From IMG/VR virus record IMGVR_UViG_3300009161_000023, positions 133,542 to 197,541 of that record: a DNA stretch of 64,000 bases; one strand, 5' to 3'. Source of the DNA: a virus. Below are positions 39,507-61,464 of the stretch, piece by piece (positions within the stretch are counted from its first letter, which is position 1; the number at the start of each line of letters is the position of its first letter). The position numbers and the translations under genes are program-made. Under the pieces are notes generated by a model that worked only from the letters and a program-made list of their open reading frames with translations, ran no database searches and was not told where the DNA came from.

Positions 39507-39544
39507 TTTTAATAATTTATTTTATTAGAATTAAAACAATATAT

Positions 39545-40394: not shown

Positions 40395-40433
40395 ATACTA
40401 CGATATAAAAAATTCTCTTGAAAGGTATTTAAA

Positions 40434-41051: not shown

Positions 41052-41054
41052 TTT

Positions 41055-41834: not shown

Positions 41835-42795
41835 GAAAATATTAGTTTTAGGAGCAGGAGGCTTCATTGGATCTCATTTGGTAAAAAAACTAAAAATGAA
41901 AGACTGTTATATTACAGGTGTTGATATAAAATATCCTGAATATTCAAATACCTTAGCAGATAACTTTATAATCGGGGATTTAAAACAGCAACTTTTTTGC
42001 GATGAAATATTTAACAGTAAATTTGATGAAGTATACCAACTCGCAGCTGATATGGGAGGTGCTGGTTATATTTTTACTGGCGACAATGATGCTAATATTA
42101 TGACTAACTCAGCATTAATTAATTTAAATGTTTTAGAAAGGTGTGTTAAGACACAAGTTGGAAAAGTTTTCTACTCTTCTTCTGCGTGTATTTACCCTGC
42201 TTATAATCAATTAGATCCAAAAAATCCAAATTGCTCAGAATATTCAGCTTATCCAGCTTCTCCAGATAGTGAATATGGATGGGAAAAGCTTTTTAGCGAA
42301 AGACTTTATCTTTCTTATCATAAAAATTATAAATTAAATATTAGAATTGCTAGATTTCATAATATTTTTGGCCCTGAAGGAAGTTGGAATAACGGAAAAG
42401 AAAAAGCTCCAGCAGCATTGTGCAGAAAAGTAGCAGAATCAAATTCTGTTATTGATGTTTGGGGAGATGGAAAACAAACTCGTTCTTTTCTTTATATTGA
42501 TGAGTGTTTAGAAGGTATAGAAAAGCTAATCGAATCAAACTTTATTGGGCCTGTTAATATTGGATCAGATGAAATTATTTCAATAAATGAATTAACTAAT
42601 ATGATCATTGCAATATCAGGGAAAAAATTAACTATAAACAACATAAAAGGGCCAACTGGAGTAAGAGGAAGGAATTCTGATAATAAAATGTTATTTGATA
42701 ATATTGGATGGAAGCCAAGCTGTAAGTTAAAAGATGGAATAGAAAAAACATTTTATTGGATTAATGAGCAATTTAAAAAATTACTTTATATATAG
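41821..42795 (+). CDS. GDP-mannose 3,5-epimerase-like NAD-dependent epimerase
   Basis: GAGGFIG, QLAADMGGAGYI, YSSSACIYP, YGWEKLFSE, KEKAPAALCRK, GVRGRNSDN. Confidence 0.9.
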   Translation: MSFVKKILVLGAGGFIGSHLVKKLKMKDCYITGVDIKYPEYSNTLADNFIIGDLKQQLFCDEIFNSKFDEVYQLAADMGGAGYIFTGDNDANIMTNSALINLNVLERCVKTQVGKVFYSSSACIYPAYNQLDPKNPNCSEYSAYPASPDSEYGWEKLFSERLYLSYHKNYKLNIRIARFHNIFGPEGSWNNGKEKAPAALCRKVAESNSVIDVWGDGKQTRSFLYIDECLEGIEKLIESNFIGPVNIGSDEIISINELTNMIIAISGKKLTINNIKGPTGVRGRNSDNKMLFDNIGWKPSCKLKDGIEKTFYWINEQFKKLLYI

Positions 42796-42820
42796 ATTAT
42801 ATTAAGAAAAGGAACATGTT

Positions 42821-43498
42821 ATGAAAAGTTTTGAAATTTATTTAATTGAAGAAGATCTAATTAAAACTATTGATATTTCAAGAAAACAATTGTATTGTGA
42901 AAGTTTGTTAAAAGAAAATTTTCAAGTAAATGAATTTTTAAGTTTATTACCATCTATGCTTGGCTTACTTGGATCAAGCAAACCTAAAGATGTTGAAAGT
43001 GAAGTAAAAGAAAAAGATAAAAAATTATTTATTATAGAATTTTTAAAAAGTTCTGTTAAAAAATTAGGTTTGTTAGTTGTTATTGGTGCATTGCTCTACT
43101 TAGGTATAAAAACTGGGATAATAGCACAGTTGCTAAGCTGGGCTGGTACTATAATTAAAACTATAGTTATGTGGATAGTTTCTTTAGCTGGAGATAAAAT
43201 TAAAGCAATTCTAGAAAAAGCTTATGAAGCATTCAATGGTTTTGTAGTTGATACTGCATCACAAATTAATGATAAAACTGGAGAAGCTGGAGAATATCTA
43301 AAAGATCTATTCAAAAAAGGTACTGGAACTTTTGGCAATCCAGATATTGGTAATTCTTGGGATAATCCACAAGAAACAGATTTTCTAGGAAGAGGAAGAA
43401 CTATTTTAACTCCAAAAGAAGATAAACCAATAGATTGGAATGGAATAAATGATTTTTTTAAAGATAGAACATTAATTGATCCAAGTTTATTAAGATAA
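42821..43498 (+). CDS. Membrane protein with CTS-like leader
   Basis: MKSFEIYLIEE; hydrophobic helices LGLLVVIGALLYLG... Confidence 0.7.
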   Translation: MKSFEIYLIEEDLIKTIDISRKQLYCESLLKENFQVNEFLSLLPSMLGLLGSSKPKDVESEVKEKDKKLFIIEFLKSSVKKLGLLVVIGALLYLGIKTGIIAQLLSWAGTIIKTIVMWIVSLAGDKIKAILEKAYEAFNGFVVDTASQINDKTGEAGEYLKDLFKKGTGTFGNPDIGNSWDNPQETDFLGRGRTILTPKEDKPIDWNGINDFFKDRTLIDPSLLR

Positions 43499-43635: not shown

Positions 43636-45045
43636 ATGAACTTTAAAAATTGGATTATAAACGAGGAAATTTACCAAAATAATACAGCAACAATATTTCA
43701 CAGAACTCCAACTATTTCAGCAATTTTTTCACTTTTGACTACTAAATTCAATATTGGAAAAAGAATTAATTACGGTAGTGGTTTGTATACCACTACTACC
43801 ATTGATGGTCAATTCGTTGAAGACATGAAGGAATTTGGAGCTTTCGTAACCAAATGGAAAGTACAAGATCTTGATAAATATATTGTTTTAGGAAAACAAC
43901 ATGCCATTAAAATACATGGAGATCAATATATTATAAGTTCTCAATTAGAAAAGTTAAACGCTTTAGAAGAATTCAAAGAAAAAAATAAAGAAGAGTGGGA
44001 AATTAAACTAAAACAATGGGATAAATATCAAGAAGTCAACAGTCCACAGATAATAGATTTTTTAAATGACAATGAAAAATGGCTAGATAAAAGTAAATCT
44101 TTTAAAGGTTGTATTTATCGTGACAATAGATATGGATATTGTTTGTTAAAATTTAATCCTATCGAAGACGGAACAATAACATTTTTAGCATATGCAGAAG
44201 CTGAAGCTGACGATATACAAAAAATGGAAAAATTAAAAGATAAAAATAGTGAACATTGGATAAAGTCAACCGAAAAAGCAAGCATCAAAAGTATTTATAG
44301 AAGTCCACAAGATCAAAAAACTAAATATGGTATTGAAATTCCAGAACTAAAAATCACACCTACAGGTGGCGAAACTCTAACTGTTAAAGAATCACCTTTC
44401 GTTTATCACCTTTTGATGACACCCCTAAAAACGGGTGTAAAATGGGATTTCAATACCCAAAAAGCCATAGGTTCTAAGGATTCAGACAAATCAGTCATAG
44501 ATCCAGTCTTTATATTTTCTTATGAAAATAAAACTTGGAACTTAAAATTTAAAAAAGAAAATTTTAATAGTGGTGGTTACCTTGGAAATTCAATGTATGA
44601 AATCCCAAATATTGACGGAACACCTGTAAAAGAAATTAACAAAATAAAAAATAATAGTAAACTTTGTTTTAACGGTAAAAAAGTAAGCAATGTTTGTTTT
44701 CAATTTAATTTTGAAGAAAAAAATAAAATTGTTAAAGGTGAATCAGATAAATTGAAACTAATATCATCAGAAAATAACAAAAAATATATTGTTGACAAAA
44801 GAGATGAGTTTGGACAAAGAAATTTAACTGATCTACTTCCAATGTCAGTAAAGTTTTACGCCAGTAGTCAATTTAGATTAGAAAAAATTCAAACAAATTG
44901 GATCATAACACAAATTGTTGGAGCAAAAAACACAACAAACTTAAATGGAATTCCATTGGAACCATCGGAGATAAAACCTTTAAAAGATGGAGATATAATT
45001 TCTATCGGAAAAACACAGCAAGGAAAATTGCAAGTTAAACTTTAA
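43636..45045 (+). CDS. PARP/ART-like N-terminal domain plus C-terminal FHA domain, CTS-like leader
   Basis: MNFKNWIINEE; IFHRT...KFNIGKRINYGSGLYTT; C-terminal FGQR...NTTNLNG..L...LKDGDIISIG. Confidence 0.6.
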   Translation: MNFKNWIINEEIYQNNTATIFHRTPTISAIFSLLTTKFNIGKRINYGSGLYTTTTIDGQFVEDMKEFGAFVTKWKVQDLDKYIVLGKQHAIKIHGDQYIISSQLEKLNALEEFKEKNKEEWEIKLKQWDKYQEVNSPQIIDFLNDNEKWLDKSKSFKGCIYRDNRYGYCLLKFNPIEDGTITFLAYAEAEADDIQKMEKLKDKNSEHWIKSTEKASIKSIYRSPQDQKTKYGIEIPELKITPTGGETLTVKESPFVYHLLMTPLKTGVKWDFNTQKAIGSKDSDKSVIDPVFIFSYENKTWNLKFKKENFNSGGYLGNSMYEIPNIDGTPVKEINKIKNNSKLCFNGKKVSNVCFQFNFEEKNKIVKGESDKLKLISSENNKKYIVDKRDEFGQRNLTDLLPMSVKFYASSQFRLEKIQTNWIITQIVGAKNTTNLNGIPLEPSEIKPLKDGDIISIGKTQQGKLQVKL

Positions 45046-45063
45046 AAAACAAAGAATCGAATT

Positions 45064-45876
45064 ATGAACTTTAAAAACTGGCTACTAAATGAATCTAAAG
45101 CTATAACTCTACCACCAGAAGTGTTGAGCTTTATCGATCAAATAACACCAGAAATTACAAAGATAATGATCGATAGTAAAAAAAATCCTGACGGGCTGTT
45201 GTACCAATGTTCCGAAATTAAAAAATTAAATAAAAAATGGCATATTAAAGTTCCGATTAAATCAAAAAGTTATGATAGATTTGATTACGAAATAACTGGT
45301 GTTAAAGATAGAAAGACTGAAAAATATTTTCCTATAACTGTAGTTCTTGATTGCAATTATAAAACAAATTTTGGTCAATTTTCCGACAACGAAGTTAAAG
45401 TAAATACATTCTGGTGGGGAAAACTACAAGATGGATCTACTAAACTTGAAATATCTATAGAATCTGTAAAAGGTTTGCTTATACATGAGTTCATTCATGC
45501 TGTTGATATAAAAAATCACGATGAAAAAGTTATAAAAGCAATATCGAAAAAACATTCCGATGGCGATTACAGCGACCCTAATGAAATAGATGCATATAGT
45601 GGAACTATTACACAAAGAATTATAAGTTACGCAAATGAAAGTAACGATCACCAAAAAACACATAAAGATTTAGAAAAAATACTAGATTTCATTAAAAGCA
45701 CCGAAAAATATAGAAATACAAACATAGTTTTATACCCTCTAATTCCTAAAGATGTTGTAAAAATATATAAATATATGGATATAGGAGATGAAACAATAAA
45801 AAGAAGAATGCTTTCTAGAATTTATGACGCAGTAATGCAAGCAAAAACTATCATACAACAAAAACAAAGAATCTAA
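45064..45876 (+). CDS. HExxH metallopeptidase-like protein with CTS-like leader
   Basis: MNFKNWLLNE; LLIHEFIHAVD...PNEIDAY. Confidence 0.75.
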   Translation: MNFKNWLLNESKAITLPPEVLSFIDQITPEITKIMIDSKKNPDGLLYQCSEIKKLNKKWHIKVPIKSKSYDRFDYEITGVKDRKTEKYFPITVVLDCNYKTNFGQFSDNEVKVNTFWWGKLQDGSTKLEISIESVKGLLIHEFIHAVDIKNHDEKVIKAISKKHSDGDYSDPNEIDAYSGTITQRIISYANESNDHQKTHKDLEKILDFIKSTEKYRNTNIVLYPLIPKDVVKIYKYMDIGDETIKRRMLSRIYDAVMQAKTIIQQKQRI

Positions 45877-45927
45877 TAAATAATTAATTATGGATTTTAA
45901 AAAGCGTAACTATCGCATAAATAAACT

Positions 45928-46488
45928 ATGAAAACATTTAAACAATTCTTAAAAGAAAAACCTTATAACGAACAATTAGATATGCCACCACCACAAAAAA
46001 TTATATTAGGTGTACCTGCCATGAGGCTTGATATAACTGATCTTAATAAGTTTAAAGGCATAGACGATATTATAGCAAATTCAAAAGATGCAGAAGATAT
46101 ATTAATATCTTTAAAATTTCGAACAAGTAAAGATAAATTATCCGAAATAAACCCAGAAACTTTAGCAAATGCGTTAGTCAAAACAAAAGCTGTTCCTGAT
46201 AAGGTTAAAGAAATACTTGAATACTTTGGCGAACACCATAATGTTATGTCAAAGTATGAAATTAAAAATATGTTGAATATTACATTTGGAAATTTAGATA
46301 TTCCACAAGATGTTAAAAGTTATTTAACTACTAAACTAGAAGACTTTAGACAAAAACATCAACAGACAAGAGATATATTTTATAAGAAAAATTATCCTGA
46401 TTTGTTGAAAGGAACAAATATTGATACAAGTTATTATGACTCTGAAACAGGCAAAGGTAAATTTGGTGGGCCTGATTATCTAAGATAA
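45928..46488 (+). CDS. Hypothetical protein with CTS-like leader (MKTFKQFLKE..NEQLDMPPP)
   Basis: CATAAATA-aact-ATG. Confidence 0.75.
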   Translation: MKTFKQFLKEKPYNEQLDMPPPQKIILGVPAMRLDITDLNKFKGIDDIIANSKDAEDILISLKFRTSKDKLSEINPETLANALVKTKAVPDKVKEILEYFGEHHNVMSKYEIKNMLNITFGNLDIPQDVKSYLTTKLEDFRQKHQQTRDIFYKKNYPDLLKGTNIDTSYYDSETGKGKFGGPDYLR

Positions 46489-46542
46489 AAATTAAATTGT
46501 AATAAGCATAAATAATTCATACTATTATTGCATAAATAAACT

Positions 46543-47076
46543 ATGAAAACATTTATTGAATATATTAACGAAATAGAAAATAATAAAAGCGTAACTAATT
46601 CGTCATATGATTACAATCATGAATTTAAAAAATGGACTGTATTCCTCGAAAAAAAAGATGCTTGCTATTATAAAGTCAAAAGAAGATACCATGTGTGGCC
46701 TTCGGCCTACGGTTCTGGGGCCCTGGTTAAATGTAGAAAAAAAGGTGCAAAAAATTGGGGCAATTCTAAAAAAAACGAAACTACTGAATTAAATGAAGAT
46801 ATATTTAAAGCAGAAAAAGAAAAAGGATTACGAGGCTGGTTTGATAGAAATAAAGGAAAAGGATGGATAGACTGCAAAGCTAGCAAAAAAGGAAAACTCG
46901 TTTCTTGTGGCCGTAAAAAAGCTGGCAAAGGTGCTAAAAGAAAATATCCAGCCTGTAGACCAACTTTATCAGCATGTAATAAAACTGGGGTTAAAAGGAA
47001 AATAAGCAAAAAAGCTATTTCTTGGAAAAAGAAAATACTTGAAATGATAACATCTAAGATAGAAACAATAGAATAA
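46543..47076 (+). CDS. Basic Cys/Trp-containing two-module protein with CTS-like leader
   Basis: MKTFIEYINE; KDACYYKVKRRYHVWPSAYGSGALVKCRK; GLRGWF...WIDC...CGR...YPACRP. Confidence 0.75.
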   Translation: MKTFIEYINEIENNKSVTNSSYDYNHEFKKWTVFLEKKDACYYKVKRRYHVWPSAYGSGALVKCRKKGAKNWGNSKKNETTELNEDIFKAEKEKGLRGWFDRNKGKGWIDCKASKKGKLVSCGRKKAGKGAKRKYPACRPTLSACNKTGVKRKISKKAISWKKKILEMITSKIETIE

Positions 47077-47114
47077 AACAGAACTAATTCATCCTACTAT
47101 TGCATAAATACATT
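47075..47114 (+). promoter_or_regulatory. Copy of the about 41-bp intergenic element ending in a late-promoter-like CATAAATA box
   Basis: aaaacagaactaattcatcctactattgcataaatacatt-ATG. Confidence 0.7.
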
Positions 47115-49355
47115 ATGAAATTTAAAAATTGGCTACTAATAAACGAAGGCATGATAAAAGTATCAGCAAAAATTTATACACAAGTAATAACTGACTACTT
47201 TGAAAAATTAAAAGAATATAAAGCTTTTGGAGAAATTAGAGCTTCAACAAAAAGTTATCCACTTATAAATGAAAAAGAAAATCTTTTCAACGATACATCA
47301 TTTTCTTTTTTAATTGGTTATTTTAAAAAAGTAACATTAAATGTAAAATATAGAAAATTTGAAAAAGCCGAACAAAAGTCTTACCCAGCATATTACGAAG
47401 CTCAAGACTTTCCCAGTATGAAAATTTTTAAAGGAATGGAATTTAAAGGAACAATTGTTTTGGATTTAAAGATACTTGATGTAAAACATAAATATGATTA
47501 TATTACATTAATTCAACACGAAATAACCCATTTTATTCAAGACTTAGAAAAAATTCACGCTTACTTGAAAAGCTTAGAAAGACAATTAATTTACTTATAC
47601 AAAAAACAAAAAGAAGAAAAAGTGAGCTATAGATACGGAAACGAAATAGAAAGAATTCACAAAGCTTTGAATTTTGGGAATTTTCCAGCAGAAGATCCAT
47701 TAGAAGAAAAAGATATGCCTCTTGCTGGAATTTCTCCATTACAAATCACAAAAAACACCATGAAAGATAAAAAAATTAATTTTAATGGAGTTTTCAAAGT
47801 AAAAGATGATTTAGAAACTCAAAAATTAAAAACAATAGATCACGAAAAAAGACCAATTGAATTTCAAACTAATCTTATTTCAGTTGTTGGAGATTTTCAA
47901 AGAGATTATTTTGAAAAAATTCTAGATGGAAAATTAAAAAAAGAAAATGGATACGAAATTCCAGATGATTTATATTCTTTTGATTCATATGGTTCTAATC
48001 TAGGTTGGAAAAATAAAATAATGAATTACAATAAAATACTTGAATTTTTTAACAATAGAAATAATAAAAAATTATTCTTGAAATCAATCTTAAGCATTTT
48101 TGAAAAGACTGATTTTAAAATTTTCCATATGGATGTATGGAAAAGATATCATATTTTAACTTCGATTAAAGCACACACTGATAATACTGATACTAATGAG
48201 TTGTACAAATGGTACTTAAGTAATATTTATAAAGAATTTGTAAATAAAGACATTGATATGGATTACTTGAAATTGTTACATAAACAAGACAGATTATCTG
48301 AAGTCCCACTCGAACAAAAAAAAGACCTTTTAATAGATACACTTGAAAGTCTAAAAGGAAAAAAAGAACAAAAATATTATGCTCGTGATATAAAGTTTTT
48401 TAATAATCACGATCCTGATTTGCGTAATTTTAAAATTGATAACAAAGCTGGTGATCAATATTGGCATGCATGGAACATCTTAAAAGCATTTTATGGTAAT
48501 CAAAAAAAATACGATAAAGAAATAAAAAATGGTAGAATAATGGATTATGAAAAACTTAACGAGATATTCAAAATTATAAAAAGAGATAAAGTAGCTTTTA
48601 GAAAAGAATATGCTGGACAAAAAATTGTTTTGAATGAAATATATGAAAATTATGAAAAATTTATCAATGCTTTCTTAGATCGAATTGTTAAGTCTTATGA
48701 AATACATTACCAAAATCATAAAAATGATTATTACGAAAATGATAAAATGGAAGACATTTTACCTAAACCACCAACAAAAAACGATTTCATAGAAGACTTT
48801 AATATAGAAATTAAAAAAGAAGATGTTAAACCACCAGTAAAAGTAGATAAAATCGTAAATACTAAAAGTAAAGATCTTTTGGAAACTATGGATGTTTATA
48901 CATTTATTTCACTTGAATATAAAGGTGAAAAAGATGAAGAAGATGATAATAAATGGAATATAATCCATGATATAGATGATCGTAAAGAAAAAATTTCTAA
49001 TGTTTCTTATAGTTATGCAAACAAGGTTGGAAGCTTATTGGAAACTTTTCTTGATCACAAAGATTCTGACCATAATATAGATAGATATAAATTAAAGCAA
49101 AAACCTGTCAAAAGAAACATTGGTATATATGAAATCTATCACCTTTTTCAATTTTTGGAACGAATACTTAATATAGACGCAAATCAAAAAGAACCATATG
49201 ATGTAGTAATTGCAAATAAAAAAATAATTGCTAGATTCTTAGCAGAAGATATCGCATGGTCATATAAAAAACATTATGAAGAAAATAATATAGATGAAAA
49301 ACCACCTACAGCAGAAAAAATATTTTTCGATAATTATGTTACATCTAGTTCCTAA
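47115..49355 (+). CDS. HExxH metallopeptidase-like protein (long paralog of 50975) with CTS-like leader
   Basis: True start MKFKNWLLINE at 47115; IQHEITHFIQ...DHEKRPIEFQTNLISV. Confidence 0.75.
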   Translation: MKFKNWLLINEGMIKVSAKIYTQVITDYFEKLKEYKAFGEIRASTKSYPLINEKENLFNDTSFSFLIGYFKKVTLNVKYRKFEKAEQKSYPAYYEAQDFPSMKIFKGMEFKGTIVLDLKILDVKHKYDYITLIQHEITHFIQDLEKIHAYLKSLERQLIYLYKKQKEEKVSYRYGNEIERIHKALNFGNFPAEDPLEEKDMPLAGISPLQITKNTMKDKKINFNGVFKVKDDLETQKLKTIDHEKRPIEFQTNLISVVGDFQRDYFEKILDGKLKKENGYEIPDDLYSFDSYGSNLGWKNKIMNYNKILEFFNNRNNKKLFLKSILSIFEKTDFKIFHMDVWKRYHILTSIKAHTDNTDTNELYKWYLSNIYKEFVNKDIDMDYLKLLHKQDRLSEVPLEQKKDLLIDTLESLKGKKEQKYYARDIKFFNNHDPDLRNFKIDNKAGDQYWHAWNILKAFYGNQKKYDKEIKNGRIMDYEKLNEIFKIIKRDKVAFRKEYAGQKIVLNEIYENYEKFINAFLDRIVKSYEIHYQNHKNDYYENDKMEDILPKPPTKNDFIEDFNIEIKKEDVKPPVKVDKIVNTKSKDLLETMDVYTFISLEYKGEKDEEDDNKWNIIHDIDDRKEKISNVSYSYANKVGSLLETFLDHKDSDHNIDRYKLKQKPVKRNIGIYEIYHLFQFLERILNIDANQKEPYDVVIANKKIIARFLAEDIAWSYKKHYEENNIDEKPPTAEKIFFDNYVTSSS

Positions 49356-49395
49356 AAAACTAAACTAATTCGTACTACCATTGCATAAATACACT
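49355..49395 (+). promoter_or_regulatory. Copy of the 41-bp intergenic element/late-promoter-like box
   Basis: aaaaactaaactaattcgtactaccattgcataaatacact-ATG. Confidence 0.7.
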
Positions 49396-50934
49396 ATGAA
49401 TTTTAAAAATTGGTTAATATCTGAAGAACAACTTTTTAATGAGGACTTCAAAACTCAAAGAGAAAAATTCATCCAACAAGGCATAGGAAAAGACATCGTT
49501 GACGGTTACCTCAAGGATTTTAAAACCATCAAAGAAAAAAAATATAAACAAATCAATGATCCAATACACGGATTAGAACATATCAAAGACAGAATCAATA
49601 TAGACGCTTATAAAACATTCCATGAACTAGCATCGCTAGTAGATTATGTCAAAGGACAAACTGATGTTTCTGGTAAAACCAATTATAAAAATATCGAAGT
49701 AGATGCAACACCAATTCATGAAGATAACGACTTGATAATTTATTACGCAGATACTCCTCAAGCATGCGTTACTTACAAAGGTGATGTTCCATATTCTTGG
49801 TGCATTGCCCGACCCGATGCAAGTAATTTATTTTATTTTTATAGATTAGGTAAACTAGAACCATCATTCTATTTTGTAAAAAACAAGGAAAGAACTAACA
49901 AAGAACTTGAAACATTTAAAGGAAAAACATTCACTGATAAATATCACTTCTTTGTAATTCAAGTAATAAAAAATGCTAACCCTGAAGATGAAGATAATCA
50001 ACAATATATTGTAACTTCCGCAGAAAATGATGGTGATGAAAAAATGTCATGGACTGATATATTAAAATTAGAACCAAAATTAATTAATAAACAAAACATA
50101 TTTGCTAGTAAACTTTTAGCACCTAAAGAAAAAGAATTATACAAAAGATTTAGCAATGGTATTTCTGATAAAGAATTTGAAAATTTACCTTTTGATGAAA
50201 AAGATATGTATTTGAGTGTTTATGTTAGAGAAAACCGACCACTTACCGACAACCAATTTAAATTTTTACCATCTGATTTAAAAAATAAGTATATTGGATT
50301 TGGAACAGGATTAAGTTATGAACAATTTAAAATGATTGATTCTGATTCTAAATTATATAAAAGATATGAAGATGTTACAAGAATTAAAATAAAAAAAACA
50401 ATTGGAACTGATAAATTTAATCTTATGCCAACTGAAATTATTGTTATGAAAAAAATAGCAAGTGAAATTGATTTTGATAAACTTTCTGGATTTAGCCTTG
50501 CCCCGTTATTAGGCAGAGAAAGTAAAAACCAAAAAGACGAAATGGCAGAATTGATTATAAAATATAAATCAGAACTTTCTAATAAGGAAATTGATGATTT
50601 GATTCGTTATGCAAAATACAAAGACAAAATAACAGAACTATTAAAAGATAAAATAAAAGATAAAATAAACAACTTTTCTAATAATGATGTTGCTAATTTG
50701 CTTCTTAGAGCAGACTACAACTACAGATTTTATATAGTAAAACTATTGGGAACAGCTAATATAAGTAAGCTTGATGGTCTTAATTTATATAGTATATTTT
50801 TAAATTCTAATAAAGATGATGATGATCTAATTCAAATTGCAATTATCATAGACAGATATCACACAAATAAAAACCTTGTAAAAAGATTTACAAGCAAATT
50901 CGAACATTTTCTCGACAAAAAACCTCCTGAATAA
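49396..50934 (+). CDS. Hypothetical protein with CTS-like leader and C-terminal helical repeats (paralog of 56047)
   Basis: MNFKNWLISEEQLFNE; YYADTPQACVTYKG..PYSWC.AR.DASN shared with 56047. Confidence 0.8.
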   Translation: MNFKNWLISEEQLFNEDFKTQREKFIQQGIGKDIVDGYLKDFKTIKEKKYKQINDPIHGLEHIKDRINIDAYKTFHELASLVDYVKGQTDVSGKTNYKNIEVDATPIHEDNDLIIYYADTPQACVTYKGDVPYSWCIARPDASNLFYFYRLGKLEPSFYFVKNKERTNKELETFKGKTFTDKYHFFVIQVIKNANPEDEDNQQYIVTSAENDGDEKMSWTDILKLEPKLINKQNIFASKLLAPKEKELYKRFSNGISDKEFENLPFDEKDMYLSVYVRENRPLTDNQFKFLPSDLKNKYIGFGTGLSYEQFKMIDSDSKLYKRYEDVTRIKIKKTIGTDKFNLMPTEIIVMKKIASEIDFDKLSGFSLAPLLGRESKNQKDEMAELIIKYKSELSNKEIDDLIRYAKYKDKITELLKDKIKDKINNFSNNDVANLLLRADYNYRFYIVKLLGTANISKLDGLNLYSIFLNSNKDDDDLIQIAIIIDRYHTNKNLVKRFTSKFEHFLDKKPPE

Positions 50935-50974
50935 AAAACGGAACTAATTCGTACTACCATTGCATAAATACACT
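50934..50974 (+). promoter_or_regulatory. Copy of the 41-bp intergenic element/late-promoter-like box
   Basis: aaaaacggaactaattcgtactaccattgcataaatacact-ATG. Confidence 0.7.
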
Positions 50975-51961
50975 ATGAATTTTAAAAATTGGCTAATAAA
51001 AGAAGGTGCAATTCAAGTACCATTTAAAGTTTTTGAACCAATTGTTACTGATTATTTCAATTACTTGAAAAATAATATTGAAAAACCACAAAGAAAAACC
51101 AAAACATATAGCTTGGATTTCTCAAATACAAAATATGAATTTTTAAAACATCTTAACCCAAAATTAAAAGTAAATTATAAAGGCTTTAAAGATAATACCG
51201 TTGGACATTATTTTGGAGAAAAAGCAGATGTTGCAATACACGATGACCAAACATATGAAGTAACAGGAGTTATAGAACTAAAATATGATTTGTTTAAAAA
51301 TTTTTATTATTCTGCAATTGTTAATCCTGCAATTTATGGACTTGTAGAACATGAATTTACTCATTTCTTACAACATTTACTTGATATTAATGAATACCTT
51401 AAAAACAATGAAAGCATACCAGATGACATGGATCTTATTCCAATTAAAGCACATGGTGGCAGTGTGCCAAAAAGATTAACAAAATATCTGATGAAAAAAC
51501 AAGATGTTGATTTTTATGGTTATAATTTAAAAACAAACAAACCGATAGATCACGAAAAAAGACCAATAGAATTTCAAACTAATCTTATTTCTGTTTTAGA
51601 CAAAATACAATCAAGCTTTGTAAATGCATTTTTAAGTGGAAATTTAAACCCAAGTTATTTTTCTTATCCTTATGACATTGTAAAAACTATCAAAACTAAA
51701 GAAGATTTTGAAAAAAATAAAAATTTAATAATTGGATTTTTAAACAACCCAATAGAAAAAAAGAAATTCATTCTTTCATCTAAAAAAGGACAGTTTAGAA
51801 TTGATAGCGATGACTTAACAAATGTTAAAAAATATAACACAGAATTGTATAATTGGTACTTAAATGAAATTTATAAAAACTTTGTAACAAAAGATATCGA
51901 AGAAAATAAACTAAATTACTTAGCGGATGTGTATTTCTTTTCCAAAAAATCTTATAAATAA
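50975..51961 (+). CDS. HExxH metallopeptidase-like protein (short paralog of 47115) with CTS-like leader
   Basis: MNFKNWLIKE; VEHEFTHFLQ...DHEKRPIEFQTNLISV. Confidence 0.75.
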   Translation: MNFKNWLIKEGAIQVPFKVFEPIVTDYFNYLKNNIEKPQRKTKTYSLDFSNTKYEFLKHLNPKLKVNYKGFKDNTVGHYFGEKADVAIHDDQTYEVTGVIELKYDLFKNFYYSAIVNPAIYGLVEHEFTHFLQHLLDINEYLKNNESIPDDMDLIPIKAHGGSVPKRLTKYLMKKQDVDFYGYNLKTNKPIDHEKRPIEFQTNLISVLDKIQSSFVNAFLSGNLNPSYFSYPYDIVKTIKTKEDFEKNKNLIIGFLNNPIEKKKFILSSKKGQFRIDSDDLTNVKKYNTELYNWYLNEIYKNFVTKDIEENKLNYLADVYFFSKKSYK

Positions 51962-52027
51962 AAAACGGAACTAATTCGCACTACTATTGCATAAATACAA
52001 AGAAAGCGGAACTAATTCGCACTACTA
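51961..52027 (+). promoter_or_regulatory. One full plus one partial copy of the 41-bp intergenic element
   Basis: aaaaacggaactaattcgcactactattgcataaataca, then cggaactaattcgcactacta at 52007. Confidence 0.7.
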
Positions 52028-52044
52028 CCAAAAAATAGGAAATT

Positions 52045-52758
52045 ATGAATTTTAAAATATGGTTGGAAAATTATAAAGATATTAATAATAAAGAAGAATA
52101 TGAAAAAATAAACAAACTCAACATGACAGCTAGTTTACCATTTGAACCTAAAAGTATTCCACAAGCGATAAGCGATATTGGCAAACTAACTAGAGGATTT
52201 CATTTAAATACCATCGTTGGTCGTATGATGACTCCATGGATTAATTCACTAAACAGAGCACCTATAGATTATGAATTATTAGAAACCGACCCAGAAAAAG
52301 CAACAAAATGGTCAGTTAGTAGCACCGATAGAAAAGCAAATAATAATTATAAAGCTGCATATGACTTGTTTAAACAGGAAATAGCCAACGCAGTAGATGC
52401 TTTACCAGTTAAACTTGGAATTAATATTATGACAGGCAAACCAGAAGATGTTCTTTTGAAAACTAAAGAATTTTTATCAAATTATACTCCCGAAGAAAAA
52501 GACCTTGTAAAATCACTCGACAACGCTTGGAATTTATATACAAAAGTATTTGGAAACGATAAAAAAAGTAATTTTTCTCAAATTCAAAACTTTGCAAACT
52601 TCTTTCAACTCGTCAAAGAAGAATTTATGAAAATTGGCGAACTACTCAATAACATGCAAGATGACGATGGATTAAATGTAATACAAAATGATTTTTTAAA
52701 AGCTCTTAATAAAGAACAAAGAAAATATGAAAAAATGATGGGCGTTTCATTTGAATAA
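52045..52758 (+). CDS. Hypothetical helical protein with CTS-like leader
   Basis: MNFKIWLEN; SD tagga. Confidence 0.75.
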   Translation: MNFKIWLENYKDINNKEEYEKINKLNMTASLPFEPKSIPQAISDIGKLTRGFHLNTIVGRMMTPWINSLNRAPIDYELLETDPEKATKWSVSSTDRKANNNYKAAYDLFKQEIANAVDALPVKLGINIMTGKPEDVLLKTKEFLSNYTPEEKDLVKSLDNAWNLYTKVFGNDKKSNFSQIQNFANFFQLVKEEFMKIGELLNNMQDDDGLNVIQNDFLKALNKEQRKYEKMMGVSFE

Positions 52759-52767
52759 TAGATTTTA

Positions 52768-52808
52768 AAAAACGGAACTAATTCGCCCTACCATTGCATA
52801 AATACACT
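52768..52808 (+). promoter_or_regulatory. Copy of the 41-bp intergenic element/late-promoter-like box
   Basis: aaaaacggaactaattcgccctaccattgcataaatacact-ATG (39/41 identical to the 50934 copy). Confidence 0.7.
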
Positions 52809-52958
52809 ATGGATACTTTTGAAAATACATCTCCTCCAGAAGAACAAATTCAAAAAGTTTTAGCCAAATGCTGGAACTGCGAAAATTATGTTTATTGCAC
52901 TGGAACAATTCTTAATTATTGCGATATGTGCCTAAATGAAATGACAAAGACACAATGA
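52809..52958 (+). CDS. 49-aa Cys-rich (CxxC...CxxC) mini-protein not in ORF track
   Basis: MDTFENTSPPEEQIQKVLAKCWNCENYVYCTGTILNYCDMCLNEMTKTQ*; behind the promoter element, ATGA-coupled to 52955. Confidence 0.65.
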   Translation: MDTFENTSPPEEQIQKVLAKCWNCENYVYCTGTILNYCDMCLNEMTKTQ

Positions 52959-53422
52959 ACTTTAAAAATTGGCTATTAAACGAAGCAAGACAAGGTTTTC
53001 TACGATACCTTAAAGAAAAATTACCGCTTGTTCCTGAATATGTCTTGTTTGATTTATTTTATAAAAATATAAAAAATTCTAAACCTGAAGAAATAGAAGA
53101 ACTTATACAAATTTATAAAGATTTTAAATGGGAATTTAAAACAAATTTTCACATAAGCTACGAAATATTTGATGATACAACTATTCAAAAACTTAAAATT
53201 AGAAAAGGTGGAACAGTAAATCCATACGGTGTTCCTAACGATAAACAAAGACATGATAAACAAAAAGAACTAATTACAAAAGCAATTCCTAAAGAACCAA
53301 TCATATTAATTAAAAATGGTAATAAATATGAATTGCTGGAAGGATGGCATAGAACCATTCAATTATTTGAAAAATATCCAAAGGGATTTGTTTACCCACA
53401 AGTTTATATAGGTATACCATGA
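52955..53422 (+). CDS. ParB/Sulfiredoxin-like domain protein with CTS-like leader
   Basis: MNFKNWLLNE; EPIILIKNGNKYELLEGWHRT. Confidence 0.6.
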   Translation: MNFKNWLLNEARQGFLRYLKEKLPLVPEYVLFDLFYKNIKNSKPEEIEELIQIYKDFKWEFKTNFHISYEIFDDTTIQKLKIRKGGTVNPYGVPNDKQRHDKQKELITKAIPKEPIILIKNGNKYELLEGWHRTIQLFEKYPKGFVYPQVYIGIP

Positions 53423-53961
53423 ACTTTAAAAACTGGCTACTACTCTCTGAAGAACAAATTTTAAATGAAAGATTTAGAGAAATAGCTGCTGGTAATGAAA
53501 ATTTCAAATTTTTATTTGATCAGGAACATAAATTTTTAGCCTATGATCGTAGAACAAACTTAAATGTAGGTTGGCTCATAGTAGGTTATAAAAATGAAGA
53601 TGGATCAAGATCTGTTCACAATGTAGCTGTAGATCCAGTCTTTAGAAGACAAGGAATAGCCACATCTCTATATAAAGCAGCAGAACAAGAATTCGGCAAA
53701 CTTACACCCAGCACCGCCCAATCAGATAACGCATTTGACTTCTGGAAAACTTATCGACCAGAAGCTGTTAAAAACAAAACAGACCTAAGACCATTTAAAG
53801 ATCAGTTAATAGGCAAGAAATTCGACCATCCAAGATTAGGACCAATGGAAATAATAGAAGTAAATATACATACAGCTACAGGACTTATTAAAAATAGAGA
53901 ACGGCATACCGAAATTTTTCTAAATAAAAATGACTTAATAAAGTTTAATCTATTACCATAA
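53419..53961 (+). CDS. GNAT acetyltransferase with CTS-like leader
   Basis: MNFKNWLLLSEEQILNE; VHNVAVDPVFRRQGIATSLY...QSDNAFDFW. Confidence 0.85.
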   Translation: MNFKNWLLLSEEQILNERFREIAAGNENFKFLFDQEHKFLAYDRRTNLNVGWLIVGYKNEDGSRSVHNVAVDPVFRRQGIATSLYKAAEQEFGKLTPSTAQSDNAFDFWKTYRPEAVKNKTDLRPFKDQLIGKKFDHPRLGPMEIIEVNIHTATGLIKNRERHTEIFLNKNDLIKFNLLP

Positions 53962-53968
53962 ATACACT

Positions 53969-54919
53969 ATGAACTTTAAAAACTGGCTATTACTAAATGA
54001 GGTTTCTGATTTTGAAAAAAATCAGATGGGAACAAAAAAACTAACTTATAATTATGTTTCCCAAAAAGAATGGCCAAAATTGCGTGAATACTTGGTTCAA
54101 CAATCTTTGACACGAAATCCTAATTTAGACACAGAGTTAACAGCTTATACACCAGGCGAAACCTTGGAACTGCTTGATCATCCTAAAATTAAAGCATGGT
54201 TTAAAAAAATGAAAAATTTTAAAATACCAGATAAATATGGTCTTGTTATACTAGTAGCTTGTGCAGCTTCTAAACCTTGGGGTCAAGGTTGTAAAGGTGA
54301 ATTTTATCCATCTTACAACAAAATTAGAACAGAAGAAGAACTTAAAACAAGAAAAAATTCTAAACCTAGTTACTTCGTTACTATATCAGAACCTCTTGGA
54401 GTTGTTCCTCAAGATTTCTGGGATAACTTCCCACAATATGATAATCCAGGTCTATTTAAGGACAACACACAACAAAGTATGACAACTAAAGATTGGATAC
54501 AAAAATCACCTTTTAACCAAAAAAGAGAAATGCCTTTTGACGATGAAGCATTTAATAAATGTATTGAAATATTAGGTAATGTTATTGGTACCTTTATCAA
54601 AAATAACCCAAATCATGAATATATATCTATTGTTGAACAAGCAGATAAAACAAAGATTTCAACACATAGCAAAATGTTAGATATTGCACAGGCTTATGCT
54701 AAAAAATCAATATTAAGAAATGAAAAAAAACCAAGTAAAGGTAGAGATAAATATGACGGTGTTGCTCATGTTAAAAAAATAATTCAACAAAGTCCAACAA
54801 AGTATACTAAAGAAGATGAAGAATATCTAAGAAAAAATTTAACAGGCAATGTATCATTAGATAAAGATGTCATAAAAAATTTAAAAGAAATACAAAAAGA
54901 TAGAAATTTTAAACTATGA
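53969..54919 (+). CDS. ArcS/TgtA2-related DUF5591-like domain protein with CTS-like leader
   Basis: VILVACAASKPW...FVTISEPLGVVPQDFW..FPQYD. Confidence 0.55.
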   Translation: MNFKNWLLLNEVSDFEKNQMGTKKLTYNYVSQKEWPKLREYLVQQSLTRNPNLDTELTAYTPGETLELLDHPKIKAWFKKMKNFKIPDKYGLVILVACAASKPWGQGCKGEFYPSYNKIRTEEELKTRKNSKPSYFVTISEPLGVVPQDFWDNFPQYDNPGLFKDNTQQSMTTKDWIQKSPFNQKREMPFDDEAFNKCIEILGNVIGTFIKNNPNHEYISIVEQADKTKISTHSKMLDIAQAYAKKSILRNEKKPSKGRDKYDGVAHVKKIIQQSPTKYTKEDEEYLRKNLTGNVSLDKDVIKNLKEIQKDRNFKL

Positions 54920-55503
54920 ACTTTAAAAACTGGCTACTATTAACTGAAAACATAATCGTAAAAAAAGATGATATTATGTTTGTGAATTTTGTGGAAGATC
55001 AACAATTAAGACTTGAATTAGAAAATCAAGATTATGATGTTTATGTCCGTGGAAGTTTTTCAGACGGGCCATTACTTGAAATAGACAAAGTAGGTTCAAT
55101 TAGATTGTTAATGGCTGGTCCGATTAGCAGACCAACATATTATACTGTACATTCAATTAATGGAAAATCAAAAGGTGCAGGAACAATATTGTACTTTGCT
55201 GCACTTGAATTCGTGGTTAAATATGGAATTAGATCTGCAAATGGATTGCTTGCATCAGATACAACAATATCATCAGATGCAGTTAGAGCAAGAAAAAGAC
55301 TTCAAGATAATTATGGCGAATATATCTCTATACATGAACATCCAGATATAAAAAATGCCAAAACTCACAACTGGACTGATGAAAGATTAAAAGCTACTCC
55401 AGAGGAAGCGTCAATGTGGAAATTAAAAACTCTTGCACATCCATTTAATTTTAATTTTATATCTGCAAATCCACAAATAAAAACACCAAAATTCAATCCC
55501 TAA
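54916..55503 (+). CDS. GNAT-like protein with CTS-like leader
   Basis: SKGAGTILYFAALEF...LASDTTISSDA. Confidence 0.55.
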   Translation: MNFKNWLLLTENIIVKKDDIMFVNFVEDQQLRLELENQDYDVYVRGSFSDGPLLEIDKVGSIRLLMAGPISRPTYYTVHSINGKSKGAGTILYFAALEFVVKYGIRSANGLLASDTTISSDAVRARKRLQDNYGEYISIHEHPDIKNAKTHNWTDERLKATPEEASMWKLKTLAHPFNFNFISANPQIKTPKFNP

Positions 55504-55518
55504 TCAATAAATACCTTT

Positions 55519-56043
55519 ATGAACTTTAAACTATGGCTGTTATCTGAAATGCCCGTTATTTCTCTGCAAGGTAAAACCGTACTCGCAGATGATAAACCTC
55601 TCAAAGAAGTCGATGTTGATAATGTCAAAAACAATATCGTCAGTTTCCAACAAGCAACTAAGAGTATTTTTCATGAAGCAGGAGCAATTTGGGTCTATTT
55701 TCTTGACTCAGAAGAATCTGCTAAAAAAATGATAGCACAACAGATACCTTTCCTAACGGTTCCCACAATTGCTGATGGCGATGATCCAATAACTGAGGTG
55801 TGGAAAAAACGATATGCCAAAAAAGGAACCGAACACATTTTGGGACTATTAGAAGGCAATGCCAATGAAAAAGACATTTATATAAACATGATGACTGTTA
55901 GACCTAAATATAAAAGAAACACCATCAATACAAAAATGATACAATTTTTGCAATCAGAATTTCCAAATGCAAAAATATCTTTTAGTTCACCTACACCAGA
56001 AGGCAAAAAATTTATAAATAAATACACAAAAATTGATAAATAA
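55519..56043 (+). CDS. GNAT-like protein with CTS-like leader
   Basis: MNFKLWLLSE; IYINMMTVRPKYKRNTINTKMI...FSSPTPEGKKF. Confidence 0.6.
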   Translation: MNFKLWLLSEMPVISLQGKTVLADDKPLKEVDVDNVKNNIVSFQQATKSIFHEAGAIWVYFLDSEESAKKMIAQQIPFLTVPTIADGDDPITEVWKKRYAKKGTEHILGLLEGNANEKDIYINMMTVRPKYKRNTINTKMIQFLQSEFPNAKISFSSPTPEGKKFINKYTKIDK

Positions 56044-56046
56044 ATC

Positions 56047-57843
56047 ATGAACTTTAAAAACTGGCTACTACTCTCTGAAGAACAACTTTTTAATGAAGAT
56101 TTTAAAACTCAAAGAGAAAAATTCATCCAACAAGGCATAGAACCAGATGCCGTTGACTATTACCTCAATACCTTTAAAACTATTAAAGATAAAAAATACA
56201 AACAAATTAATGACCCAATACAAGGTCTTGAACATATCAAAGATAAAACCAATATAGATGCTTTTAAAATATGGAAAGAACTAGAAGACTTCGTTGATTA
56301 TGTTAAAAGCCAAGTAGATGTTTCTGGTAAAACTAGTTACAAGAATATCAAAGTAGACGCAAAACCAATCTATGAAGATAACGACCTGATAATTTATTAC
56401 GCAGATACTCCTCAAGCATGTGTTACTTACAAAGGCAATGTTCCATATTCTTGGTGTGTTGCCAGAACCGATGCAAGTAATATGTTTTACCACTATAGAT
56501 TTGGAACACATAAACCATCATTCTATTTTGTAAAAAATAAGGAACGAACCAATACAGAACTTGAAACATTTAAAGGAGGAACATTTACTGATAAATATCA
56601 CTTCTTCGTAATCCAAGTAATAAAATATGCTAAACCTGAAAATAAAGATGATCAACAATACATTGTAACTTCTGCACAAAATATTGGTGATCAACAAATG
56701 TCATGGAATGATATATTAAAACTAGAACCTAAATTAACTAATAAAGAAAATATATTTATCAGCAAGCCTCTTGGAATTAAAGAAGAAGAACTATACGAAA
56801 AATTCAAAAATGGTATTTCTGATAAAGAATTTGAAAACTTACCTTTTGATGAAAAAGATATGTACTTGAATATTTATGTAAGACAAGACCGACCACTAAC
56901 CGACAACCAATTTAAATTTTTACCAACTGATTTAAAAAATAAGTATATTGGCTTTGGAGTTGGTTTGTCTGATGAACAAGTTGAAATGATTGATTCTAAA
57001 TTATACAAAAGATATGAAGATGTCACAAAAACTAAAATAGAAAAAACTATTGGAACTGAAGAATTTAAACTTACACCAAGCGAAGTTAATATATTATTAA
57101 AATATATAAATGAATTTGATTTCAACAAACTTTCTTATGATAATGTTGAGTATTTGCTTAAATACGCAACTGATGACAACATGGCAAAATTAATTATACA
57201 AAAGAAACAAAACCTTTATACTTTTGATGTTTTTAATTTGCTTGATTATGCAACCAATAAAGAAGAAATAGCAGAACTATTACAAAAAGATAACATTAGT
57301 GAACTTAGACACAATGATATTGTTACATTGCTTAATAATGCAACCGATAAAGACAAAATGGCAGAACTACTTATAAAATATAAAACAAATTTTCGTGATA
57401 ATATTTATTATTTGCTTTTTTTTGCAACCGATGATAACAAAGACAAAATAGCAGAACTAATTATCGAAAAAGAAAAAGAACTTTCTAGCTTGCATCTTCT
57501 TCCTGATATTGGTATCGAAGCGTTACTTTATTATTCAAATGACACAGAAAAAATAGCAAACTTGCTAGGAACAGATAACATAAATAGAATTGAAAATAGA
57601 AATATTTTCAAGTTGATTACAAAATTAGAAGGCAGACCTTTAAAACTAGAAATAATTGCTAAAATATTAGGAGAAACAAATATAAGTAAACTTACTTATG
57701 ATTCTATTAAGTTAATGCTTAGCAAATCACATCCTAAAAAAGAAAATACCGCAAAAATACTAAATCAATATTATGCAAATAAAACACCACAAATAAAAAG
57801 ATTAATTAATAAACATTTAAAAACAAAAACCCTTCCTGAATAA
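56047..57843 (+). CDS. Hypothetical protein with CTS-like leader and C-terminal helical repeats (paralog of 49396)
   Basis: MNFKNWLLLSEEQLFNEDFKTQREKFIQQGI; repeats of the type DK(M/I)AEL(L/I)I. Confidence 0.8.
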   Translation: MNFKNWLLLSEEQLFNEDFKTQREKFIQQGIEPDAVDYYLNTFKTIKDKKYKQINDPIQGLEHIKDKTNIDAFKIWKELEDFVDYVKSQVDVSGKTSYKNIKVDAKPIYEDNDLIIYYADTPQACVTYKGNVPYSWCVARTDASNMFYHYRFGTHKPSFYFVKNKERTNTELETFKGGTFTDKYHFFVIQVIKYAKPENKDDQQYIVTSAQNIGDQQMSWNDILKLEPKLTNKENIFISKPLGIKEEELYEKFKNGISDKEFENLPFDEKDMYLNIYVRQDRPLTDNQFKFLPTDLKNKYIGFGVGLSDEQVEMIDSKLYKRYEDVTKTKIEKTIGTEEFKLTPSEVNILLKYINEFDFNKLSYDNVEYLLKYATDDNMAKLIIQKKQNLYTFDVFNLLDYATNKEEIAELLQKDNISELRHNDIVTLLNNATDKDKMAELLIKYKTNFRDNIYYLLFFATDDNKDKIAELIIEKEKELSSLHLLPDIGIEALLYYSNDTEKIANLLGTDNINRIENRNIFKLITKLEGRPLKLEIIAKILGETNISKLTYDSIKLMLSKSHPKKENTAKILNQYYANKTPQIKRLINKHLKTKTLPE

Positions 57844-61390: not shown

Positions 61391-61425
61391 TCTTATAATC
61401 CTTTTTCTAATAAAACTTGAGAAGT

Positions 61426-61452
61426 TTGTTCCTACCACAATGGTAGGAACAA
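61426..61452. other. 12-bp perfect hairpin between the AAA and vWA genes
   Basis: ttgttcctacca-caa-tggtaggaacaa. Confidence 0.7.
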
Positions 61453-61464
61453 TTAAGACTAACT

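Follow-up and report, generated by a model that had tools for sequence, protein, structure and literature searches.

A tandem array of genes with leaders resembling the T4 capsid-targeting sequence in an uncultured phage: candidate proteins for delivery with the viral DNA

In this work, we analysed a 64,000-nt stretch of DNA from a very large, uncultured T4-related phage (IMG/VR virus record IMGVR_UViG_3300009161_000023, positions 133,542 to 197,541; hereafter the window), in which an array of 14 genes at positions 43636-57843 encodes different proteins behind one short N-terminal leader. The leader is real and occurs far beyond chance, and it resembles the capsid-targeting sequence (CTS) at the start of the internal proteins (IPs) of phage T4. 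We consider it probable that the leader genes constitute an expanded, lineage-specific T4-type capsid-targeting system, by which many different proteins would be loaded into the prohead for delivery together with the DNA.

The shared leader and its likeness to the T4 capsid-targeting sequence

The array consists of 14 closely packed plus-strand open reading frames (ORFs), non-overlapping apart from start-stop overlaps of a few nucleotides. All 14 start with the shared leader that had been noticed in an initial annotation, made by a model from the letters alone. Named here by the first position of their coding sequence, twelve of them (43636, 45064, 47115, 49396, 50975, 52045, 52955, 53419, 53969, 54916, 55519 and 56047) carry a leader of the type M[NK]FK.W[LI] and two (45928 and 46543) one of the type MKTF..[FY][LI].E; for 47115, 49396 and 50975 the conserved ATG is the evident start, where the ORF finder gives an upstream TTG instead. 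Nine more genes outside the array fit as well (42821, 22520, 26284, 26944, 27187, 28076, 29056, 30486 and 33973), bringing the total to 22-23 leader-bearing genes among the 66 predicted in the window, close to the about 24 that had been estimated initially. The earlier remark that most leaders end in [ILF]-x-E also held up: 13 of the 14 array genes have an [LIVFM]-x-E whose Glu is residue 10 or 11, with 52045 as the exception. An aromatic pair [FYW]-x-x-[FYW] is located at residues 3/6 or 4/7 in all 21 leaders that were scored.

A strict form of the motif occurs 18 times in the six-frame translation of the window, always on the plus strand and always at the start of an ORF. With a looser pattern, defined as Met, up to four residues, aromatic-x-x-aromatic-hydrophobic and then Glu within six, 21 of the 66 predicted genes match, compared with 2 of 273 internal Met positions. 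Chance or low-complexity bias was rejected as an explanation, with a background of only 0.6-0.8% (internal Met positions and the genome of the cultured jumbo phage XacN1). A Sec-type signal peptide was rejected by reading the sequences, the leaders being charged and without a hydrophobic core.

At the DNA level, pairwise identity between the 12 MxFKxW genes averages 0.85 in codons 1-8 (nt 1-24) and amounts to 0.31-0.36 from codon 9 on and to 0.34-0.41 upstream, while random 24-mers of the region are 0.31 identical. The cargos behind the leader are unrelated to one another apart from a few paralog pairs. Within the leader, synonymous positions vary (AAC/AAT for Asn2, AAT/AAC for Asn5 and CTA/TTA/TTG/CTG for Leu7) and codon 8 varies too, with the amino acids remaining fixed. 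Genes 45064, 53419 and 54916, which have operon-internal starts without the conserved upstream block, nevertheless keep the leader. The peptide pattern is furthermore found on about 40 genes of LR756511.1, a 595-kb genome of an uncultured phage with 42% GC (window 29% GC), whose leaders use other residues and codons (MKTFNQWLE, MLTFTEWLE, MKTFAEWMEE and MEFREWF). Taken together, the synonymous variation, the leaders kept by operon-internal genes and the pattern kept by a 42%-GC relative indicate that it is the leader peptide and not the DNA on which selection acts, and that the leader is modular with respect to its cargo. The possibility raised in the initial annotation, that the peptide is a mere translational artefact, is hard to reconcile with lineage-specific leaders on unrelated neighbouring genes.

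The T4 internal proteins' capsid-targeting sequence was reportedly described by Mullaney and Black in 1996. In the T4 record AF158101, IPII and IPIII start with MKTYQEFIAE, IPI with MKTFKEF and gp61.1 with MKTFKEFIKE, and the window's MKTFKQFLKE and MKTFIEYINE are the same kind of sequence; MKSFKEFLKQ is found among the window leaders as well. Applied to T4, the looser pattern recovers IPII, IPIII and three other matches among 245 predicted genes. Mutagenesis of the T4 IPIII leader assigned targeting mainly to residues 4 and 7 and processing to residues 8 and 10, where Asp at position 10 blocks processing and leaves targeting (PMC9026906). The T4 protease gp21 cleaves after the Glu of [L/I]-x-E, and Alt is cut at ITE-6 and LTE-619 (PMC5694885). 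Both the T4 IP leaders and these mapped targeting and processing residues bear out the CTS-like character that had been proposed for the leader.

Further parallels concern the arrangement of the system. In T4, a 10-19 aa N-terminal leader is carried by the otherwise unrelated proteins IPI, IPII, IPIII and Alt (reviews PMC3012670 and PMC9026906), as it is by the proteins described here, and both systems have in common the sequence type MKT[YF].E[FY][IL].E, aromatic residues like those required for targeting in T4 and an [IL]-x-E like that required for cleavage by gp21. Polymorphic cargo behind a conserved leader is likewise a feature of T-even phages, and the relatives of the window phage possess gp21, a scaffold-like gene and gp23 in T4 order. 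The two systems differ in scale, since T4 has three IPs and Alt (possibly also gp61.1), whereas 22-23 leader genes lie within 64 kb here, in tandem arrays. The dominant leader of the window, MNFKNWLL.E, has its aromatic pair at 3/6, shifted from 4/7 in T4, and many cargos here are large multi-domain proteins of up to 746 aa, in contrast to the small basic cargos of T4. Unlike what is described for T4, each phage lineage here has its own leader consensus, and packaging is a prediction.

Lineage-specific leaders and head genes in related phages

The leader could be followed across lineages in front of one cargo family, that of 49396 and its paralog 56047, an uncharacterised family that comprises more than 222 metagenomic sequence clusters. 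Its conserved N-domain of about 340 aa starts with DFK[TS]Q and contains invariant C124, C136, H184, N211 and D214. The domain is preceded by MNFK.WLLSEE..FNE in close relatives, elsewhere by MKFKNWFLVE, and in further lineages by MKLSHIFKDLLNE, MKILPILNQILSE, MKYIKIFEAFILGGVNE and MKIIITESQLRKLINGVINE. Without exception, the 12-20 aa leader of each lineage ends in [LIVF]-x-E directly before the domain, and the Glu at this position (E16) is invariant in an alignment of 31 sequences. Another lineage-specific leader is found in the complete, 348-kb genome G002, where 12 genes at 97-134 kb start with M[KR][NYH][LI]K.[FY]..[FY], compared with 0 of 1673 internal Met positions. In a 21-kb locus of IMG/VR UViG_3300044678_002325, most of the 29 ORFs start with MKIIINESQLRQIIESE or MKKIVRLTESDL.KLVKRIIKE, and 16 of 28 genes score as similar to the leader of the cargo homolog, compared with 0.2% of the genes of other loci. 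This is the densest leader array that we saw, with two leaders of 17-20 aa in a different lineage; neither a protease nor a capsid gene lies on this contig, which is a fragment. Leaders matched to their lineage in this manner suggest a targeting signal that co-evolves with its receptor and protease, of which they would be the expected look.

The sole INPHARED record with homologous cargo is LR756511.1. Its homolog of 49396 lies just 3' of a module that displays the T4 order of S77 protease, scaffold-like ORF and Gp23, with matches to Peptidase_S77 (E = 2.5e-27) and to the Gp23 capsid protein (E = 2.5e-86). The ORF between protease and capsid gene, at the position of gp22, encodes a Glu/Lys-rich protein of 310 aa with no Pfam match. 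Protease (MREGVMLLNE) and capsid protein (MSANAKFLNE) themselves display L-N-E at residue 10, as in the leaders, and leader genes are located directly 3' of the capsid gene; three such genes are present in G002. Five IMG/VR genomes with the 49396 family (G002-G006, 288-362 kb, four of them rated complete) all contain both S77 and Gp23, and among five further fragments, S77 was found in two (G008 and G011) and Gp23 in G008.

No cultured phage has a capsid protein more than 33% identical to that of this clade, the nearest being those of Microcystis phage Mel-JY01 and of Xanthomonas/Stenotrophomonas jumbo phages, followed by T4-like cyanophages. The array DNA has no megablast match in INPHARED, and an exact 37-mer of the window does not occur in the IMG/VR and JGI metagenome contigs. 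XacN1 possesses S77, yet shows the leader pattern only at background level (4 of 561 genes), which indicates that the leader expansion is lineage-specific and not general to large gp23 phages.

Cargo content differs even between close relatives, in line with the cargo turnover that the initial annotation had suggested surveying. In a 120-kb fragment estimated to cover 24% of its genome (G001, IMG/VR 3300023184_000046), shared proteins are 70-97% identical to those of the window, but counterparts are present for only about 10 of 23 window cargos. The two leader clusters of the window, at 26-34 kb and 43-58 kb, are contiguous in this relative, whereas in the window a block at 34498-43498 with RCC1-repeat, collagen-like and sugar-modification genes separates them, with several extra leader genes between or within the clusters.

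Three side observations were made in these relatives. Directly after its capsid gene (positions 17675-19632 of locus L001), LR756511 encodes a leader-bearing NADAR protein (MLTWTEFLEA) and a leader-bearing phosphoribosyltransferase (..DFKEWYFINE). NADAR enzymes reverse DNA ADP-ribosylation, and a packaged copy could counter a DarT-type defence. Far from the head module, at 242621-242989 of LR756511.1 (locus L004), a 304-aa ORF contains a second, diverged Peptidase_S77 match (E = 3.5e-9), which recalls the diverged protease paralog reported in SPN3US. Finally, locus L041 (IMG/VR UViG_3300022752_000151) carries a 49396-type domain inside a 3747-aa ORF around position 10001, where ...FLDE directly precedes DFKSQ; this ORF may represent a polyprotein with internal protease sites instead of a separate leader gene.

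Promoter-like element, proposed pathway and alternatives

A TAAATA element is located at most 30 nt upstream of 13 of 21 leader genes, compared with 8 of the 45 other genes of the window. The spacer between TAAATA and ATG is almost always exactly 4 nt, rarely 5, in the form (G)CATAAATA[AC]ACT-ATG, and no ribosome-binding site lies between them. TAAATA-N4-5-ATG is also enriched before the leader genes of G001 and LR756511 (15 of 40 compared with 44 of 965 in the latter, where many of the other genes with this geometry have leader-like N-termini missed by the pattern). A 40-nt upstream block, 78-95% identical, is common to four genes of the array. On the plus strand, its copies lie at 46503-46542 (...TTGCATAAATAAACT, with TAAATA box and 4-nt spacer, directly before the ATG of 46543), at 47075-47114 before 47115 (80-88% identical to the other three), at 49356-49395 before 49396 (95% identical to the copy before 50975) and at 50935-50974 before 50975. 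The near-identity of these blocks suggests that promoter and leader spread as a unit.

In 52045, a TTGCATAAATAC box is found about 45 nt upstream and an AGGA ribosome-binding-like site precedes the ATG, and the capsid gene of LR756511 has a TAAATA box about 35 nt upstream. From these distant positions, it appears that the box behaves like a promoter and not like part of a ribosome-binding site. No TAAATA box is present within 60 nt upstream of 45064, 53419 and 54916; for 53419, this is explained by its start overlapping the stop of the preceding gene. T4 late promoters have the consensus TATAAATA at -13 to -6. By analogy, with the 4-nt spacer transcription would begin on the A of the ATG or right beside it, and the late mRNAs would be leaderless. 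The T4 late promoter is an 8-bp TATA box at about -10 with no -35 element (PMC2988020).

In the pathway that we envisage, the leader genes would be transcribed late, many of them from a TAAATA box 4-5 nt before the ATG, and the aromatic pair of the newly made protein (F3/W6 or F4/[FY]7) would dock it onto the scaffolding core of the assembling prohead. After shell closure, a gp21-type serine protease (MEROPS/Pfam S77) would cut behind the Glu that closes [LIF]-x-E (residue 10 or 11). The leader peptide would then exit the head, while the mature protein would stay with the DNA and enter the host at the next infection. That these proteins are made late, dock, are cleaved, stay in the head, are injected and have any part in host takeover or anti-defence is our inference. 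The array could thereby represent a fast-turnover, virion-delivered set of acetyltransferases, HExxH proteins, a possible ADP-ribosyltransferase and repeat proteins, able to act before any phage gene expression.

Several points weigh against this pathway. The search for homologs of gp21, gp22 and gp23 proposed in the initial annotation succeeded for S77 and gp23 in six related genomes (LR756511 and G002-G006), but no protease, scaffold or capsid gene was found within the window itself (Pfam, about 40 window proteins). An [LIVFM]-x-E site is missing from 52045 and 33973, and 27187 carries, at residue 10, the Asp that stops processing in T4. As a tripeptide, L-x-E is moreover common, so that the cleavage site alone is weak evidence. 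If roughly one gene in three over 64 kb had its product packaged, the head load would be large, and a cargo with a DnaJ domain is not an obvious virion protein. The late sigma factor gp55 was matched weakly and in one relative only (G002, searched with the T4 protein), and the late-promoter label for TAAATA is therefore an analogy.

It should be considered whether the leader serves as a docking or sorting tag for something else, for example a different part of the virion, an intracellular structure built by the phage, a chaperone or a site on the membrane, with the T4 likeness being that of a generic short amphipathic helix. The leader is indeed modelled by AlphaFold as a low-confidence N-terminal helix. 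However, the match to T4 is specific, comprising an identical MKTFKEF, the mapped aromatic spacing and Glu 10 with Leu or Ile at residue 8, and the leader co-occurs with S77 and gp23, with leader genes adjoining the capsid gene. Since it additionally ends in [LIVF]-x-E directly before the 49396-family domain, which suggests removal by a Glu-specific protease, we regard a destination other than the prohead as unlikely. Packaging without an effector function, in which the proteins would serve as expendable material of the core or inner body, or would condense DNA, and be degraded or remain inert, would agree with most cargos having no recognisable enzymatic family and with their lean towards basic proteins (median pI 9.0 compared with 7.7, p = 0.07, not significant). 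Folded enzymes and binding modules are nevertheless among the cargos, with two GNATs, HExxH proteins, FHA and helical repeats here and NADAR and phosphoribosyltransferase in LR756511, and cargo content differs between close relatives as it does for conflict genes, unlike structural parts. T4 CTS proteins, too, include an anti-restriction protein and an ADP-ribosyltransferase (PMC3012670, PMC9391042), and purely inert packaging seems distinctly unlikely to us.

We attach very little probability to the notion that the conservation is a feature of the nucleic acid, that is, a mobile promoter and translation-initiation cassette (for example a leaderless-mRNA start or a recombination site) that duplication and gene conversion would have spread, with a functionless peptide. 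In its favour, the first 24 nt are 85% identical in the window and four genes have the 40-nt upstream block in common (78-95% identical); the start region is rich in A/U, and a TAAATA box only 4-5 nt before the ATG may let transcription begin on the start codon or right beside it. Such a cassette does not, however, account for synonymous positions that vary around fixed amino acids, nor for 45064, 53419, 54916 and 52045, which keep the peptide without TAAATA directly before the ATG. The 42%-GC relatives and other lineages retain the aromatic/hydrophobic/Glu pattern with other codons and residues, and the motif lies at different distances from the ATG (F3/W6 compared with F4/F7), which is unfit for a fixed RNA signal. 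The cassette may be better seen as the way in which the array grows, compatible with capsid targeting, than as a full alternative to it.

Going beyond capsid targeting as such, we tentatively put forward, as a possible but rather doubtful extension, that TAAATA-N4-ATG and the eight-codon leader form a portable packaging cassette. Recombination in the conserved 24 nt would switch genes into and out of the injected set in an integron-like manner, late mRNAs would be leaderless, and each lineage would use a private leader as a 'zip code' matched to its own scaffold, which would keep its cargo from being packaged by co-infecting relatives. If this were true, the virion-delivered proteins of uncultured T4-superfamily giant phages could be picked out of metagenomes directly by a short sequence tag.

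Other delivery systems resemble the proposed one in part. The phiKZ-like giant phages possess S80 proteases (phiKZ gp175, SPN3US gp245) that cut at [S/A/G]-x-E (PMC5694885, PMC7411985). They, too, are large phages, and in their heads lie dozens of internal proteins that a prohead protease related to gp21 cuts after Glu and that are ejected into the host. Their propeptides are, however, mostly longer than 100 residues with no shared leader, in contrast to the short shared peptide found here, and the S77 protease of the relatives, Leu, Ile or Phe at P3 and the leader length of 10-11 aa lie outside the S80 definition of the phiKZ-like phages. Polyvalent proteins of phages and conjugative elements, as far as Iyer et al. 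2017 are cited in PMC7824862, carry DNA-delivered ADP-ribosyltransferase (ART), GNAT and metallopeptidase domains and are thought to act at the first moment of invasion. Compared by the domain types given there, the likeness consists in toolkit domains delivered with the DNA, with ART-PolyVal among the weak look-alikes of 43636. The difference lies in the fusion of these domains in one giant polypeptide, whereas here separate module genes each have their own leader, so that single modules can be gained and lost. The Dar anti-restriction system of phage P1 reportedly also relies on N-terminal capsid targeting, with proteins that are loaded into the head and injected; head type and targeting sequence are unrelated to those described here, and incorporation in P1 is ordered and co-dependent.

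The concept of capsid targeting is already known, and a 2022 review suggests that T4-like phages may take up various proteins by way of the CTS. In the literature searched, no paper joins capsid targeting with huge, jumbo or mega phages or reports such arrays, their scale or the lineage-specific leaders in huge uncultured phages, and none contains the strings MNFKNW, FKNWL or LTESDL. Injected proteins act before phage gene expression and are the first answer to restriction enzymes and other immediate defences, and very few have been identified so far (in T4, P1, N4 and phiKZ-like phages). Should the capsid-targeting interpretation be true, uncultured half-megabase phages carry dozens of injected proteins, enzymes included, a set much larger than that of any studied phage. 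A tag of 10 residues would then allow injected proteins to be recognised from sequence, yielding a large catalogue of candidate anti-defence and host-takeover proteins. The lineage-specific leaders would constitute a natural experiment on a targeting signal co-evolving with scaffold and protease, and they could extend T4 protein-packaging technology to other capsids.

Cargo proteins and gene neighbourhood

Gene 1 of the array (43636-45045, 469 aa, MNFKNWIINE; like all leader genes below, on the plus strand) had been described initially as an ART-like protein with FHA. The C-terminal FHA assignment is marginal (20.9 bits compared with a cut-off of 20.7, with weak FHA fold matches), and an ADP-ribosyltransferase fold of the N-domain is a lead only. 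ART families, one of them ART-PolyVal, are among the weak Atlas look-alikes of 43636 (scores 0.83-0.85, TM 0.38-0.55). Its AlphaFold model was too poor for use (pLDDT 50), and no Pfam match for ART and no PDB sequence match was obtained. ART folds have a catalytic H-Y-E or R-S-E triad; H22, Y51 and E177 of the N-domain are invariant in 18 homologs. The homologs keep the leader, with M1, F3, K4, W6, E10 and E11 invariant, and in some of them another N-domain is joined to the same C-terminal part.

HExxH motifs, which had been noted for three array genes, are present in all three, although no family match was obtained for them or for 26284 outside the array. The motifs are HEFIH at residue 141 of gene 2 (45064-45876, 270 aa, MNFKNWLLNE), HEITH at residue 135 of gene 5 (47115-49355, 746 aa, MKFKNWLLINE) and HEFTH at residue 126 of gene 7 (50975-51961, 328 aa, MNFKNWLIKE). 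The latter two have the HExxH region and stretches such as HEKRPIEFQTNLISV in common, and 47115 is likely a long paralog of 50975. Gene 3 (45928-46488, 186 aa) carries the T4 IP-type leader MKTFKQFLKE and has an N-terminal stretch NEQ.DMPPP in common with 30486, which is likely its paralog, as judged by this one stretch. Gene 4 (46543-47076, 177 aa, MKTFIEYINE) is, as initially annotated, a basic Cys protein with 26% Lys+Arg and 6 Cys, and matches PHROG 727, 3477 and 38880, all three of unknown function.

Gene 6 (49396-50934, 512 aa) starts with MNFKNWLISEEQLFNE followed by DFKTQ, and its conserved N-domain of about 340 aa precedes C-terminal helical repeats. Its paralog, gene 14 (56047-57843, 598 aa), starts with MNFKNWLLLSEEQLFNE followed by DFKTQ and has longer helical repeats. 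The AlphaFold model of 49396 (pLDDT 81) displays C-terminal repeats of the PPR/PUF/armadillo type (Z 8-9.5), in agreement with the helical-repeat cargo that had been predicted, and in homologs these repeats are swapped for ankyrin, HEAT or pentapeptide repeats. The N-domain gave no fold match, and was barely tested by the whole-model fold searches, which matched the C-terminal repeats only.

The remaining array genes encode shorter proteins. Gene 8 (52045-52758, 237 aa, MNFKIWLEN) is the one without [LIVFM]-x-E at residue 10 or 11. For gene 9 (52955-53422, 155 aa, MNFKNWLLNE), no family could be assigned, and its earlier description as ParB-like finds no support in Pfam, PHROGs or PDB sequence searches. 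Its 141-aa cargo is 82% identical to the C-terminal half of a 267-aa protein of G001 (74518, starting MDTFENATSW), a difference that reflects either domain fusion or a different start call. The start of gene 10 (53419-53961, 180 aa, MNFKNWLLLSE), a GNAT acetyltransferase, overlaps the stop of gene 9, and that of gene 12 (54916-55503, 195 aa, MNFKNWLLLTE), which has no family, overlaps the stop of gene 11 (53969-54919, 316 aa, MNFKNWLLLNE). The DUF5591 match of gene 11 amounts to 22 bits and remains under the threshold of 26, at variance with the initial assignment. Gene 13 (55519-56043, 174 aa, MNFKLWLLSE) has an ESCO-type acetyltransferase domain. Of the three GNATs initially listed for the array, 53419 and 55519 are supported and 54916 is not; a GNAT is also supported in 29056. 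Nine of the 14 array cargos are without a family (Pfam at E up to 1 and PHROGs), and PDB sequence searches were empty. The enzyme-rich effector and anti-defence set that the initial annotation had envisaged goes largely beyond what the recognisable families of the cargos support.

Directly 5' of the array lies a leader-like gene (42821-43498, 225 aa, MKSFEIYLIEE), and a second leader cluster at 26284-34494 comprises 26284 (MKLNFKLWFE, with a HESQH motif), 26944, 27187, 28076 (DnaJ domain), 29056 (GNAT), 30486 and 33973. Among the genes that interrupt this cluster is an HNH/NUMOD4 homing-endonuclease gene at 27405-28064. An isolated leader gene is located at 22520-23143 (207 aa, MLKFKVWLESE).

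The block at 34498-43498 additionally encodes a polysaccharide pyruvyl transferase, an FkbM methyltransferase, a family-11 glycosyltransferase and an NAD-dependent epimerase, and its collagen-repeat gene (37461-39506) has a GC content of 0.43 in a genome of 0.29. A further set of glycan genes at 9517-19641 includes UDP-galactopyranose mutase, a DegT-type aminotransferase, an ATP-grasp enzyme and a nucleotide-diphospho-sugar transferase, and is adjoined by a nucleotidyltransferase of the poly(A) polymerase/CCA-adding type. On the minus strand at 59300-62727, a CobT-like protein, which has both a VWA domain and a long acidic region of Ser/Asp/Glu repeats, is encoded beside a CobS-like AAA_5 ATPase, a pair which we take to be typical of T4-like cyanophages and pelagiphages.

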